NCBI GenBank assembly: GCA_035548375.1
Contig: DASZTG010000080.1
Coordinates: 81,185 to 145,184 of the forward strand
DNA from: Burkholderiales bacterium
Lineage (GTDB): Bacteria > Pseudomonadota > Gammaproteobacteria > Burkholderiales > JACQAP01
Direction: 5' to 3'
Length of the DNA stretch: 64,000 nt
This document shows, piece by piece, positions 12,101-54,471 of the stretch. The notes under the pieces are model-generated. The model made no database searches and was not told the origin of the DNA. It saw only the letters and a program-made list of their open reading frames with translations. The translations under genes were made by a program, and so were the position numbers. Position 1 is the stretch's first letter. Every line of letters begins with the position of its first letter.

Positions 12101-12105
12101 AAACA

Positions 12106-12154
12106 GTGAGGAGTGAGGAGTGAGGAGTGAGGAGTGAGGAGTGAGGAGTGATTG
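12106..12154. repeat. tandem heptamer array, 6 perfect GTGAGGA units plus one degenerate (GTGATTG)
   Basis: Direct reading: perfect 7-nt period from 12106 to 12147, starting 6 nt after the GGDEF stop. No complementary TCCTCAC arm occurs nearby. Confidence 0.95.
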
Positions 12155-20362: not shown

Positions 20363-20535
20363 GTGACTTGAGTGACGAGTGACGAGTGACGAGTGACGAG
20401 TGACGAGTGACGAGTGACGAGTGACGAGTGACGAGTGACGACAGGGTTAGTCTTCGCTTTGGGTACGGGAGTTCAGGAAACCTCGCATTTCGCAGTTTAC
20501 TTGTCCCTTGTCACACGTCACTGGTCACTCGTCAC
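20363..20535. repeat. 10 perfect tandem GTGACGA heptamers plus a distal 4-unit complementary GTCACNN arm
   Basis: Perfect 7-nt period from 20372 to 20441, preceded by a degenerate GTGACTT. About 68 nt downstream, GTCAC recurs at 20510, 20517, 20524 and 20531, again with a 7-nt period and in inverted orientation. Confidence 0.95.
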
Positions 20536-49986: not shown

Positions 49987-51072
49987 ATGGGGTTCATGAA
50001 CACGGATGCTCAAGCAGGCGCTACGACCTACGCGACGGACGACGATCGGTGGGCAGCGGTCGTGCGCCGCGATCGCGAGGCAGACGGACGATTCTTTTAC
50101 TCGGTCAGGACGACTGGGGTGTACTGCCGGCCGTCCTGCGCGTCGCGGACGGCATTGCGCAAGAACGTTGCTTTCCATGCAACGATCGAAGACGCCGAAC
50201 GCGCGGGTTTCCGCGCCTGCAAGCGCTGCAAGCCCGGCGCGCAGGGACTCGACGAACGGCATGCGGCCGGAGTCGCACGCGCATGCAGGTTGATCGAAGC
50301 TTCAGGCGAACTGCCGACGCTGGACGAACTTGCTCGCGAAGCCGGCATGAGCCGGTTCCACTTTCATCGGATCTTCAAAAGCGTAACGGGCGTAACACCG
50401 AAGGCCTACGCAACCGCGCAGCGCGCAAACCGGGTGCGGGAATCCCTTCCTCGCAGCGGCACGGTGACGGAAGCCATTTACGACGCCGGTTTCAATTCCA
50501 ACGGCCGCTTTTATGCGAAATCCACGGATGTGCTCGGCATGACGCCTTCGACGTTCCGTGACGGCGGCACGGGCGAGACGATCCGCTTTGCGCTCGGCGA
50601 ATGCTCGCTCGGCTCTATCCTCGTCGGCGCGACGGACAAGGGTGTGTGCGCCATAACCTTGGGCGACGATCCGGAAAAGCTGCTGCGCGAACTGCAGGAC
50701 CGCTTTCCCAAGGCGAAGCTGGTGGGCGCGGACAAGGAATTCGAGCGCCTCGTCGCCCGCGTCGTTGGATTCGTCGAATCCCCGTCGCTCGGCCTCGACC
50801 TGCCGCTGGACGTGCGCGGCACGGCGTTCCAGCAACGCGTGTGGCAGGCCCTGCGCGAAATCCCGCCGGGCCGCACCGCAAGTTACGCGCAAGTCGCGGC
50901 CCGCGTCGGAGTACCGAAGGCGGTGCGGGCGGTGGCACAGGCTTGCGCCTCGAACGACATCGCCGTGGCGATCCCCTGCCACCGGGTCGTGCGCAGCGAC
51001 GGCGCGATATCGGGCTATCGCTGGGGTGTGGAGCGCAAGCGTGCGCTGCTCGATCGGGAGATGAAGCCTTGA
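49987..51072 (+). CDS. ada: bifunctional Ada regulator / methylated-DNA-protein-cysteine methyltransferase
   Basis: The internal ATG at 49987. N-terminal Zn-Cys4 (VYCRPSC...FRACKRCKP), an AraC-type HTH (SRFHFHRIFKSVTG), and the C-terminal active site IPCHRVV. Confidence 0.9.
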   Translation: MGFMNTDAQAGATTYATDDDRWAAVVRRDREADGRFFYSVRTTGVYCRPSCASRTALRKNVAFHATIEDAERAGFRACKRCKPGAQGLDERHAAGVARACRLIEASGELPTLDELAREAGMSRFHFHRIFKSVTGVTPKAYATAQRANRVRESLPRSGTVTEAIYDAGFNSNGRFYAKSTDVLGMTPSTFRDGGTGETIRFALGECSLGSILVGATDKGVCAITLGDDPEKLLRELQDRFPKAKLVGADKEFERLVARVVGFVESPSLGLDLPLDVRGTAFQQRVWQALREIPPGRTASYAQVAARVGVPKAVRAVAQACASNDIAVAIPCHRVVRSDGAISGYRWGVERKRALLDREMKP

Positions 51073-51833
51073 GGACGGCGGCCCAGCGGCGCTTGCAACT
51101 GGAAGAGCCGCTCGCGGTCGACGCGGAAACGCGGGAACGCGTGGCCGCGCACGACTGGGATCGCGTCGCCTGCGAGCTCGATGCACAGGGCCACGCGATC
51201 CTGGCGGGCTTGCTCGCTCCGGCATCCTGTGTTTCGCTCGCGGCAGCCTATACGAATGATGCGCTCTTCCGCAGCCGCGTAGTGATGTCCCGCCACGGTT
51301 TCGGGCGCGGGGAGTATCAATATTTTTCCTATCCGTTGCCCGAACCCGCCGCCAGCCTGCGCACCGCGCTGTATCCGCACCTGGTCGCCACCGCGAATCG
51401 CTGGAACGAATCGATGGGCCTGAAGCCGCGCTTTCCGGACGAGCATGAGGAATTCCTGGATCGCTGCCATCGCGCCGGCCAAGTACGCCCGACCCCACTG
51501 CTTCTGCAGTATGGCGCAGGCGACTACAACTGCCTGCACCAGGACCTCTACGGCGAGCATGTTTTTCCGCTGCAGGTCGCCATCCTGCTATCCCGACCCG
51601 ATCTCGATTTCAAAGGCGGCGAGTTCGTGTTGACCGAGCAGCGGCCGCGCATGCAGTCGCGCGTCCAGGTCGTTCCGCTGCGGCAGGGCGATGCCGTGGT
51701 GTTCGCGGTCTACAATCGGCCGGTGCAGGGAACGCGGGGCATTTATCGAGTGAAGATGCGCCACGGCGTAAGCCCGATCCTGTCGGGGCGCAGGCATACG
51801 CTTGGCATCATTTTTCACGACGCGCAGGCGTAG
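51069..51833 (+). CDS. Fe(II)/2OG-dependent oxygenase of the type co-occurring with ada
   Basis: The TTG at 51069 overlaps the ada stop (TTGA). CLHQDLYGE (HxD), RMQSRVQVV...RHGVS. About 254 aa. The start assignment is inferred. Confidence 0.7.
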   Translation: MRTAAQRRLQLEEPLAVDAETRERVAAHDWDRVACELDAQGHAILAGLLAPASCVSLAAAYTNDALFRSRVVMSRHGFGRGEYQYFSYPLPEPAASLRTALYPHLVATANRWNESMGLKPRFPDEHEEFLDRCHRAGQVRPTPLLLQYGAGDYNCLHQDLYGEHVFPLQVAILLSRPDLDFKGGEFVLTEQRPRMQSRVQVVPLRQGDAVVFAVYNRPVQGTRGIYRVKMRHGVSPILSGRRHTLGIIFHDAQA

Positions 51834-51838
51834 CGCGA

Positions 51839-51922
51839 GAAGGGTGAAGGGTGAAGGGTGAAGGGTGAAGGGTGAAGGGTGAAGGGTGAAGGGTGAAGGG
51901 TGAAGGGTGAAGGGTGAAGGGC
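51839..51922. repeat. 12 tandem GAAGGGT heptamers (the last is GAAGGGC)
   Basis: Direct reading: perfect 7-nt period from 51839 to 51922, starting 6 nt after the oxygenase stop and ending about 150 nt upstream of the radical SAM start. No complementary arm occurs nearby. Confidence 0.95.
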
Positions 51923-52074
51923 AGATCAGGCCCGCGACACGCGAGCGAAGTTCGGCAATTTTGTATTTTCTTGTCGTCCATCACGCATTGCCCATCATGC
52001 CCTGCCCCTCGCCAATCGAACCACCCGTCCTGCCCGCGGTCGAACCGCGAACGTCGGCAGAGCGAGAAGGTTCG

Positions 52075-53589
52075 ATGAAAAAGCGCGTCCTGGTCGTCAA
52101 CGTCTTCCTGGACGAATACCGCAGGACCCGAGGCAGTCCCATGCGCGTGCCGCGCGGCTCCGGCCATATCTATCTGGCAGGCGCGTTCAATCCCCACACC
52201 GTGGACGTTCGCGTCTACAGCGAGCAGGTCAACGGCTATCTCCACGACGCGGCCCTGCTCGGCTGGCCGGACATGCTGGTGCTGACCGGCCTGACCAACG
52301 GGCTGGACCGCATGCTGCACCTCACCGCCTACGCGAGGACCCTGAATCCGCGCGTCGTGGTCGTCGCCGGCGGCCCCTGCATTCGCGCGCTGCCGAACAC
52401 CTGCAGGCAGTATTTCGATCGCATCTGCCTGGGCGACATCGAAGAGCTGAGGCAGGTCGCCGAAGAAACATTCGGCGCGGGCGCCGCCGTGGAAGGCGAG
52501 ATGTTTCCGCGCTACGATCTCGCCGAGCCGAGCCAGTTGCTCGGCTACGTCGAATCCAGCCGCAACTGCAATTTCCGCTGCTCGTTCTGTTCCCTCACCG
52601 GGGAAAAGGCAAAGTACGGCAGCTATCACGTCGACTACGTGCGCCGCCAGATCGAAGCCACCGGCAAGAAAGTCATCGTCTTCCTCGACAATAATTTCTA
52701 CGGATCGGGGCGCGAGCATTTCGACGAGCGCATCGACATGCTGGCGGATTTGCGCCGGAAGGGCACGATCAAGGGCTGGTCCGCCATCCTGACCAGCGAT
52801 TTCTTTGCGCGTCCGCAAAACCTGGAACGGGCGAAGCAGGCGGGCTGCCTGTCGCTGTTCTGCGGTGTCGAATCGTTCGATGCCGCCACCCTGCGCAGCT
52901 ATAACAAGAAGCAGAACATGATCACGCCGCAGATCGACATGATTCGCTCCTGCCTCGAAGCGGGAATCATGTTCCATTACGGCGTGATGCTCGATCCGAC
53001 CACGCGGCGCATCCATGACCTGGAAGCCGAGATCGACTTCATCCTCGGTCGTCCGGAGATTCCGATGCCGGCCTTCTTCACCTTGCCGATTCCCCTGCTC
53101 GGCACGCCCTACTTCCGCCAGAGCGTGGAACGCGGCAGCCTGCTGCCCAATTTGCGCTTGCGTGAATTGAACGGCGTCAACATCACGCAGAAGACGCTGG
53201 ACCCGACCGACCGGGCGGTCGCGTTCGCGCGCGATCTCGTGAACCTGCGCGGGAGGCACGGACGCGCGGCACGGCATGCCGCCGGATTCGTACGCCGATA
53301 CGCACGGCGGTTGTCGCCATTGCAGCTTGGCGCGGCGGTGGGCAGCGTTGCGCTGACTTGCCTGCCAAGCGTGGCCTCGTCCCCGCTGAATTTCTCGAAA
53401 CGACGCCAGGCGCAGACGTTTTATGCCCCGACCGAATCGCTCGATGATTTCTACCGGCCCGTCATGCCGGTACGCGCCGAATTGCAGCACTACTTCAGGC
53501 CGACCATGATCACGGATGCGCAAGGCGGCATCGCGGAAGACATCGCCGCGGACTACGCGCAGCAGGAGCTTGCCGTCGCGACGGCGTAG
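52075..53589 (+). CDS. B12-binding-domain radical SAM protein
   Basis: The internal ATG at 52075 follows GAGAAGG. N-terminal MKKRVLVVNVFLDE...VLTGLTN...VVVAGGP (B12-binding-like), then YVESSRNCNFRCSFCS (CxxxCxxC). 504 aa. Confidence 0.8.
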   Translation: MKKRVLVVNVFLDEYRRTRGSPMRVPRGSGHIYLAGAFNPHTVDVRVYSEQVNGYLHDAALLGWPDMLVLTGLTNGLDRMLHLTAYARTLNPRVVVVAGGPCIRALPNTCRQYFDRICLGDIEELRQVAEETFGAGAAVEGEMFPRYDLAEPSQLLGYVESSRNCNFRCSFCSLTGEKAKYGSYHVDYVRRQIEATGKKVIVFLDNNFYGSGREHFDERIDMLADLRRKGTIKGWSAILTSDFFARPQNLERAKQAGCLSLFCGVESFDAATLRSYNKKQNMITPQIDMIRSCLEAGIMFHYGVMLDPTTRRIHDLEAEIDFILGRPEIPMPAFFTLPIPLLGTPYFRQSVERGSLLPNLRLRELNGVNITQKTLDPTDRAVAFARDLVNLRGRHGRAARHAAGFVRRYARRLSPLQLGAAVGSVALTCLPSVASSPLNFSKRRQAQTFYAPTESLDDFYRPVMPVRAELQHYFRPTMITDAQGGIAEDIAADYAQQELAVATA

Positions 53590-53595
53590 ATATCG

Positions 53596-54471
53596 CTATT
53601 CCTGCACGACTTTCCCAGCCTGAAGTTCGAGTTCACGCGACTCCGGCGTCTCGAGACTGATGCGCCCCAAGGCACCACTGCGATAGTCGTCCAGCAGAAT
53701 CCTCGATGCCTTTTCGAGATCGAGGCCGCCGCCTTTCACGATGCATCCGCGACGCCTGGCAACTGCTTCAATGAGGCTAACGCCATCCATTCCATCCGTC
53801 TCGAGCTTGTACCTCGCGACCAGCAGCTTCGGGTAACGCGCCAGCAGGATGTCGCCGAGGAAGGCCGCGACGTCTTCTTCGATGACCGCGTTGGTACCGA
53901 TCGCATGGCTCGCGGCCAGCATGTAGCCGTCAGCGTCGTGTTCGATCTTCGGCCACATCAATCCGGGCGTATCGGTCAAGGTCATGCCGACGCCGATGTC
54001 CAGGCTTTGCTGCACCTTCGTCACGGCGGGCTCATCGCCGACGGCGGCTACGCGCTTCTTGAGCAGCGCGTTCATCAGGGTCGACTTGCCGACGTTGGGT
54101 ATGCCCATGATCATCATGCGCAACGGCTTGGTGTTGTCGCTACGATGCGGCGCGAGTTCGCGGCAGTACCCCGTGACGCGCGCGACGTCCGCCGGCTTCT
54201 TGCTGGATATTGCCACCGCCTTGATGCCCTTCTGCTTCCCATAGAACGCGAGCCAGGCTTTCGTGACGACGGGATCGGCCAGGTCGGCCTTGTTCAGCAG
54301 CTTTAGCGCCGGCCGCTGGCGATGCTCGCGCATCTTTCGGATCATCGGATTGCTGCTGGCCTCCGGCAGGCGCGCATCGACCACTTCGATGACCACGTCG
54401 ACGAATTCCAGGGTCTGCGCCGCCTTCTTGCTGGCAAGGCCCATGTGGCCGGGGAACCATTGGATAGGCAT
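53596..54471 (-). CDS. ylqF: ribosome biogenesis GTPase YlqF/RbgA
   Basis: 291 aa. MPIQWFPGHM, circularly permuted GTPase motifs LLNKADL ... MGIPNVGKSTLMN ... LTDTPG. Confidence 0.9.
   Translation of the reverse strand: MPIQWFPGHMGLASKKAAQTLEFVDVVIEVVDARLPEASSNPMIRKMREHRQRPALKLLNKADLADPVVTKAWLAFYGKQKGIKAVAISSKKPADVARVTGYCRELAPHRSDNTKPLRMMIMGIPNVGKSTLMNALLKKRVAAVGDEPAVTKVQQSLDIGVGMTLTDTPGLMWPKIEHDADGYMLAASHAIGTNAVIEEDVAAFLGDILLARYPKLLVARYKLETDGMDGVSLIEAVARRRGCIVKGGGLDLEKASRILLDDYRSGALGRISLETPESRELELQAGKVVQE

Follow-up and report, generated by a model that had tools for sequence, protein, structure and literature searches.

The draft genome of a Burkholderiales bacterium (4.44 Mb, 63.6% GC) carries twelve G-rich heptamers in direct succession between the oxygenase gene of an ada operon and a radical SAM gene, and the question raised by this locus is whether the array serves the gene that it precedes. 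The stretch of DNA analysed here, 64,000 nt long, is referred to as the window, and coordinates are positions in the window unless a contig or locus is named. An earlier note on this DNA regarded the array as an unpaired, quadruplex-forming element upstream of the radical SAM gene, with possible contingency-locus behaviour. The analysis favors a different reading, in which the array probably belongs to a dispersed class of intergenic heptamer SSRs, has been expanded by slippage and forms the G-rich arm of an old element at the ada junction. Most likely it does not act as a switch dedicated to the radical SAM gene.

The array occupies positions 51839-51921 on the + strand. Read directly, these 83 nt contain 11 perfect GAAGGGT units and a 12th unit, GAAGGGC, in which the last base is changed. 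TRF reports a period of 7, 11.9 copies, 100% matches, 0 indels and a score of 166, which no other tandem repeat in the window or elsewhere in the genome reaches. The twelve perfect heptamers of the earlier note are therefore eleven, although all 12 G3 tracts are intact and are separated by 4-nt TGAA loops. There are 5 nt between the oxygenase stop codon TAG (51831-51833) and the first GAAGGGT unit. The previously given distance of about 150 nt to the radical SAM start is accurate, with the ATG at 52075 lying 153 nt past the array end, as is the sense-strand placement; the oxygenase gene, the array and the radical SAM gene are all on the + strand.

The array is a real feature of the genome. An independent NCBI assembly (GCA_964534645.1) contains the identical 12 units with both unique flanks intact, on a contig of another length, and it differs from the present sequence by 1 mismatch in 6515 nt. 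Short-read assemblers do break at the array, and a Logan short-read contig from run SRR12170511 begins within it, so a repeat collapsed or inflated during assembly could be imagined. Such an artefact is scarcely credible given the same count and intact flanks in the independent assembly, and periodic sequence is seen at only 1 of the 200 contig ends of this genome. The copy number is 12 in both near-identical assemblies (n=2).

The gene ada (49987-51072, + strand) encodes a 361 aa protein, according to the gene call of the near-identical NCBI record, with Pfam matches to the Ada Zn-binding domain, the AraC HTH and the O6-methylguanine methyltransferase DNA-binding domain. The next gene (51069-51833, + strand) encodes the 254 aa 2OG/Fe(II) oxygenase of the ada operon (PF09859, Oxygenase-NA, E 5.8e-86). 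In an exact-protein look-up, this oxygenase matched only the near-identical NCBI record. The gene following the array (52075-53589, + strand) is assigned to the class-B (B12-binding) radical SAM genes by Pfam and NCBIfam matches, all of them below the equivalog cut-offs, and its start is the call in the NCBI annotation of the near-identical record. The ribosome-biogenesis GTPase gene ylqF/rbgA (53596-54471, TIGR03596, 313 bits) lies beyond it on the - strand. The radical SAM and convergent ylqF stops are separated by 6 nt (53589-53596) that contain neither a hairpin element nor a terminator; the ylqF stop of relatives abuts the C-rich arm of the junction element. An antisense ORF with an FTLHPSP repeat (51808-53523) is listed across the array. 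It is spurious, as the earlier note had already said, because the + strand gene has a GC3 of 0.83 and Radical_SAM/B12 Pfam matches. A coding role for the array was rejected.

The history of this junction can be read from related genomes. The ada and oxygenase genes are kept in at least 17 relatives, with oxygenase orthologues of 51-71% aa identity in 17 of them, and the radical SAM gene is next to the pair in none. In seven relatives (L002, L003, L006, L007, L008, L009 and L018) the oxygenase gene is followed by an element, a convergent ylqF and then asmA, and this ylqF-asmA pair is the one found beyond the radical SAM gene here. A paired hairpin stands right after the oxygenase stop in 6 of 9 relatives, with arms of 20-46 nt and 76-94% complementarity. 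The heptamer or similar unit at the junction differs per species, being GGTGAAA, CAGGACT, GAGGTAC, CGTGACGR or GGACTGAG. The unit of L002, which is the closest relative by oxygenase identity, is GGTGAAA and is one substitution away from the GGTGAAG of this array. Two relatives (L008 and L018) have only a C-rich arm of GTGAAAG type, which adjoins ylqF.

In the relatives, ada and the oxygenase gene are followed by the hairpin element and ylqF, with the radical SAM gene at this locus in none of them; this gene was therefore inserted beside an older junction element in this lineage only. The junction behind the operon would have had a hairpin element already before the genus split into species, most relatives having one there with a unit of their own, and the radical SAM gene would have entered between this element and ylqF. 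The adjacency of the array and the radical SAM gene is, judged from this gene order, a lineage-specific accident. Since the element predates the insertion, the array may be regarded as the start of the 3' untranslated or termination zone of the ada operon, which is probably transcribed, and presumably did not arise as a regulator of that gene.

The radical SAM gene itself has its closest homologues (L041-L044, 76-77% aa identity) in other contexts with no array upstream. Their sources are a betaproteobacterial MAG and soil metagenomes. In the MAG (CAVVDJ010000004.1, L041:2480-3000) the homologue was seen by eye to lie just 3' of an integrase/transposase-like ORF, and this neighbour, if the assignment is right, would fit an accessory, mobile radical SAM gene. 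The earlier view of the array as an upstream element of the radical SAM gene does not survive the lineage-specific insertion, the homologues lacking an array and the occurrence of long arrays of the same unit at approximately 60 unrelated junctions in the genus.

The array was also described as lacking a complementary arm, which applies in the strict sense only. An inverted-repeat search found no inverted pair of at least 14 nt within 280 nt of the array. The sole complementary match to the array end is 12 nt long at 83%. Three reverse-complement units match at 13/21 at best, which by a rough comparison is the level of other partnerless arrays. A degenerate partner is nevertheless present downstream. 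The array is followed by a 56-nt spacer (51922-51977, + strand), which would form the loop of an element and contains a weak terminator-like hairpin: a terminator scan found a weak 5-pair stem at 51942-51954 followed by the T-rich GCAATTTTGT, with hairpin and T-run together at 51942-51964 (2 sites vs 0.7 expected in shuffles). The spacer leads to a degenerate C-rich stretch with 7/14-nt periodicity (51978-52013, + strand; TRF period 14, 2.1 copies, 81%), which begins 57 nt downstream of the array and reads CCATCAC GCATTGC CCATCAT GCCCTGC CCCTCGC. It is placed where sister elements have their C-rich arm, and G4Hunter reaches its minimum of -1.48 at 51991.

The RNA duplex between the array and positions 51970-52049 has an energy of -70.5 kcal/mol, which is in the top 0.28% of 7260 background windows from the same contig (mean -42.9, sd 8.8 kcal/mol); the value is the best of 22 overlapping downstream windows compared with single background windows, so that the real p is roughly 0.01. 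The fold z-score of the whole 256-nt region is -1.98. It was therefore too strong to state that a hairpin cannot explain the array. Nor is it unusual for such an array to be unpaired, since approximately 40% of the arrays in this genome and 20 of 20 GAAGGGT arrays in relatives are partnerless. There was no Rfam match in 51600-52250. The C-rich arm may have decayed or been lost around the time of the radical SAM insertion, in which case the degenerate C-rich stretch would be what remains of it. Its descent from the right arm is suggested by architecture only, because alignments of the spacer region (51922-52045) to the loops and arms of the relatives, or to the leaders of the radical SAM homologues, are at noise level.

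The partly complementary stretch raises the possibility that the radical SAM gene has an imperfect leader hairpin made up of the array and the C-rich region, with the copy number setting the hairpin length and tuning read-through or processing, for example by RNase III, into that gene. The precedent is the phase-variable heptamer SSR (ATCTTTC)n in the mapped 5' UTR of hmw1A/hmw2A of Haemophilus influenzae (PMC12721329). Upstream of hmw1A, this repeat is transcribed and forms a hairpin in which 10 repeats make up the left arm and a non-repeat complementary region makes up the right; the hairpin is cut by RNase III and expression is inverse to the repeat number (PMC12721329). The present locus is similar in having at least 10 perfect heptamers in an intergenic array upstream of the gene on its sense strand and a non-repeat region that pairs with it imperfectly, with the duplex energy and fold z-score given above. 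No sigma-70-like promoter was predicted in 51600-52300, and the lack of one between the array and the ATG makes read-through from the ada operon plausible. The copy number of such arrays also differs between species.

There are also differences from hmw1A. The hmw1A SSR is kept with its gene, varies within populations and controls an adhesin, whereas the adjacency here is recent, the copy number is 12 in both assemblies and the gene encodes an enzyme with no assigned role, outside the surface and adaptation class that is usual for contingency loci. The position of the array would be inherited from a junction element older than the radical SAM insertion, the gene is absent from this locus in every relative in the genus, and the homologues L041-L044 do without an array. 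The same arrays also adjoin unrelated housekeeping genes in either orientation. A contingency or rheostat function of the hmw1A type, both as a leader hairpin and as a length-dependent tuner of read-through, is thus quite unlikely.

A bolder version of this idea can be formulated. The array and its C-rich partner would act as a length-dependent leader that switches between a hairpin and a quadruplex, sensitive to RNase III as in hmw1A, and would gate read-through from the ada operon into the radical SAM gene. As a corollary, GAAGGGT would expand preferentially, with quadruplexes stabilizing the slipped intermediates. We consider this very unlikely. If it were true, a free-living soil bacterium would be gating read-through from an alkylation-inducible ada operon into a radical SAM gene of recent acquisition.

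The preferred reading, a slippage-expanded member of a dispersed repeat class, is supported by the rest of the genome. TRF finds 41 period-7 arrays with a score of at least 40 (3 in shuffled sequence) and 20 with a score of at least 46 (0 in an order-1 Markov shuffle of the genome). The cut-off of 40 was chosen over a score of 30, at which the hits are mostly noise (218 real vs 173 shuffled), and TRF was used instead of a stricter period-7 detector that gave 10 arrays. The unit flavours include, among others, GTGAAGG, GAGTGAC, AGTGAGG, GAGGCGC, GGCACGA, GAAGGGG and GTGAGGG. Paired arrays invariably have the G-rich arm on the 5' side and the C-rich arm on the 3' side; the 40% or so counted above as partnerless have no partner at 16/21 or better. 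The arrays are mostly intergenic (35 of 41 are outside the rough gene calls) and follow a positional rule. Relative to the G-rich strand, the 5'-side ORF is at a median distance of 11.5 nt and the ORF on the other side at 76.5 nt, and 25 of 34 arrays are nearer to the 5'-side ORF; these positional statistics are approximate, as the GC3-based gene caller is a heuristic that covers 87% of the genome (74% in a first version) and miscalls the oxygenase. Heptamer SSRs in this genus would thus appear to build hairpin elements, G-rich arm first and C-rich arm last, against the ends of ORFs.

Only three period-7 arrays in the whole genome have a TRF score of at least 90, and they are found within 40 kb of each other (12105-12151, 20370-20441 and 51839-51921). 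The purine-rich strand is the + strand in all three, and the GC skew of the + strand is negative along the whole contig. This clustering could reflect a local or strand-specific slippage bias, chance or the selection of the window.

Among 37 genomes of the genus, 10 have perfect arrays of at least six GAAGGGT units, at a total of approximately 60 unrelated junctions that include about 30 loci in G028, many of them at contig ends, and about 10 in G018. Arrays of at least five perfect units occur in six further genomes from six other families among 250 genomes sampled in the order. The unit read backwards, (TGGGAAG)n, was used as a control and also forms perfect arrays of at least five units in two genomes of the order (G091 and G116), and this shows that expansion there extends to other G3 heptamers. 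Across 391 kb sampled from G018, the density of heptamer arrays is about ten times higher. In the 130-contig assembly of G028, at least 20 of the contig ends fall within (GAAGGGT)n, and these arrays are a main cause of assembly breaks in that species.

The 20 GAAGGGT arrays inspected in relatives have 8-16 units and lie at unrelated junctions. No shared flank, terminal motif or target duplication was found among them, and no ACCCTTC partner was found for any of the 20. A transposon with defined ends was rejected, as the 20 copies share no flanks. Orientation could be assigned to 18 of the arrays, of which 11 are on the sense strand after a stop and 7 on the antisense strand before a start; these are the two placements preferred by the GGGAATC repeats of Xanthomonas (PMC4692102). 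Several GAAGGGT arrays in relatives abut or sit within paired elements of another unit, and some of these elements surround what appears by eye to be a central bidirectional terminator.

Two orthologous pairs of arrays provide the clearest record of copy-number change. The flanks of the L021/L039 and L034/L038 pairs are 84% and 81% identical and the units are perfect, with 12 vs 6 copies in one case and 9 vs 7 in the other. The suggestion that the heptamer is subject to slippage is borne out to the extent that the GAAGGGT copy number shifts over evolution. The differences are direct evidence of continuing expansion, contraction and homogenisation, and replication slippage is the probable mechanism. 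That the unit is kept perfect while the flanks diverge by 16-19% is also compatible with selection on the unit. Among the arrays L021-L040, from the relatives G018, G022, G028, G033 and G035, long GAAGGGT blocks often adjoin, or are embedded in, arrays of variants that differ by one substitution: L021 has GAAGGAT x4 on both sides and L025 has GACGGGT before the block. In L030, GTGACNG arms surround the GAAGGGT block. These neighbours give the impression that, time and again, a single mutated unit has spread through an array already present. In the same manner, the G-rich arm at the ada junction may have been homogenised and expanded by replication slippage to give the present 12 units.

Repeats of this kind have been described in other bacteria. 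According to Rehm et al. 2015 (PLoS One, PMC4692102), G-rich heptameric SSRs occur as GGGAATC in Xanthomonas and as GGGGA(C/T)T in Nostoc. The GGGAATC repeats are found either on the sense strand, within 50 bp of a stop, or on the antisense strand ahead of a start, and the repeats are nearer to the 5' ORF (28 vs 160 nt); they have 2-26 units, the long examples including perfect ones, are over-represented in non-coding DNA, frequently form convergent pairs and vary in length between related genomes at the same junction, and no function was found for them (PMC4692102). The present array shares the heptamer layout of a G3 tract plus a 4-nt loop, in 11.9 perfect copies, the dispersed non-coding distribution (41 arrays vs 3 shuffled), the placement 5 nt past a sense stop along with the genome-wide medians of 11.5 and 76.5 nt, and the variation in unit number between related genomes at the two orthologous GAAGGGT loci. 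It differs in the unit (GGGTGAA, not GGGNATC or GGGGA(C/T)T, and with no ATC motif), in the host, an uncultured soil betaproteobacterial genus, in having its quadruplexes in silico only, and in that G3 units are a minority among the flavours here (GTGAC, GAGGC, GGACTGA and others). Convergent partners, described there for the family, are represented at this array only by the degenerate C-rich stretch. No paper describing (GGGTGAA)n arrays was found in the literature searched by unit sequence; the 7-mer matches were only primers, and the 14-mer matched unrelated primers in Candida, tick and herpesvirus papers. The repeat class is already known, and GGGTGAA is a new unit in a new clade.

Short tandemly repeated repetitive (STRR) heptamers were reportedly described in heterocystous cyanobacteria by Mazel et al. 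in 1990. These are likewise tandem heptamers scattered over intergenic DNA, each genome having several families of units, but they belong to another phylum and have other units. The cyanobacterial STRR are treated as GGGGA(C/T)T by Rehm et al. (PMC4692102).

The claim that the array fits the canonical quadruplex rules was confirmed in silico. The array has a G4Hunter score of 1.42, with a best 25-nt window of 1.56, and contains nine overlapping canonical G3N4 motifs. The ViennaRNA MFE of the array RNA is 0.0 kcal/mol with canonical pairing and -25.1 kcal/mol with the quadruplex model, which places three tandem quadruplexes in it. The array is thus predicted to have real quadruplex potential. 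The spacing is not a hallmark of the family, however. G3 or longer tracts are present in the units of 19 of the 41 period-7 arrays of this genome and are lacking in the other 22, including two of the three longest. These two other very long arrays, GAGTGAC x10.3 and AGTGAGG x6.7, are perfect and have no possibility of forming a quadruplex. Long arrays in G018 include CAATCCT x9.1, GAGGATC x16.6 and CTCTGTC x10.7. Because 22 of 41 arrays are without G3 tracts, long perfect ones among them, quadruplex spacing is a property of the GAAGGGT unit flavour and does not define the family. Genus-wide, (GAAGGGT)>=6 is found at approximately 60 loci in 10 genomes and the control (GAGTGAC)>=6 at 6 loci in 4 genomes. 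Since the former is about 10-fold commoner, the quadruplex-capable unit could be favoured in the genus through preferential expansion.

These values bear on whether the array is a functional quadruplex element, in which the 12 G3 tracts form up to three tandem quadruplexes that replace the lost hairpin. They would act in the non-template DNA or in the RNA behind the ada operon, as a pause, an insulator or a 3'-end protection. In addition to the scores, the motifs and the MFE difference, the 10-fold excess of GAAGGGT over GAGTGAC arrays agrees with such a role, as do the CD experiments in which the related GGGAATC repeats form quadruplexes (PMC4692102). The array is also very likely transcribed, being on the sense strand 5 nt past a stop. 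Most sister arrays, however, are unable to form quadruplexes and are yet similar in length and perfection, and twelve tracts far exceed what a quadruplex requires. The 7 of 18 oriented GAAGGGT arrays in relatives that precede a start put the C-rich strand in the mRNA, and a G-rich RNA is thus not consistent across positions. Rehm et al. (PMC4692102) found no function for their repeats. A functional quadruplex element is therefore unlikely, and the array as a product of slippage, probably without a dedicated function, is the preferred interpretation.

The genome also has two genes for PF05635 proteins (23S rRNA intervening-sequence protein, four-helix bundle), on contigs C44 and C86 (C44:16555 and C86:2233). 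Both genes are bracketed by inverted tandem arms with GTGAC-type units, G-rich arm first, and the G-rich arm directly follows the stop of the upstream gene. The arms are GGTGACN and GTCACTC at C44:16443-16887, and CGTGACTGT and ACAGTCACG at C86:2140-2630. The arm design, consisting of tandem short units with the G-rich arm first at gene junctions, is shared by the empty hairpins, including the ada-junction element. The ada locus differs in having no PF05635 gene (only the 56-nt spacer), one clear arm and another unit.

It is possible to view the array as the overgrown arm of an emptied PF05635-type cassette, maintained or spread by the PF05635 protein or by another repeat-binding factor. The bracketing of both PF05635 genes by G-arm-first GTGAC-type arms and the presence of GAAGGGT arrays at many loci, in several families of the order, are in line with this view. 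A cassette origin is nonetheless improbable. The 20 inspected GAAGGGT arrays share no flank, terminal motif or target duplication, and orthologous junctions carry different units per species, which points to turnover in situ and not to insertion. Furthermore, the cassette arms in this genome are made of GTGAC units and not GAAGGGT, and a link between the protein and the DNA is hypothetical. An arm of the old ada-junction element that was expanded in place is still the favored origin of the array.

The locus alone adds little beyond extending the G-rich heptamer class to an uncultured soil betaproteobacterial genus with the unit GGGTGAA. The comparison of the relatives is more useful than the locus, as the hairpin persists at the junction while its 7-nt unit is replaced. 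Also useful are the orthologous arrays, which stay perfect and shift in copy number while their flanks diverge, and the finding that arms of this same design surround both PF05635 genes of this genome. Together these observations caution against reading a single array as a regulator of the gene that adjoins it, and they make two questions testable: what maintains heptamer repeats, and whether quadruplex-capable units expand preferentially.
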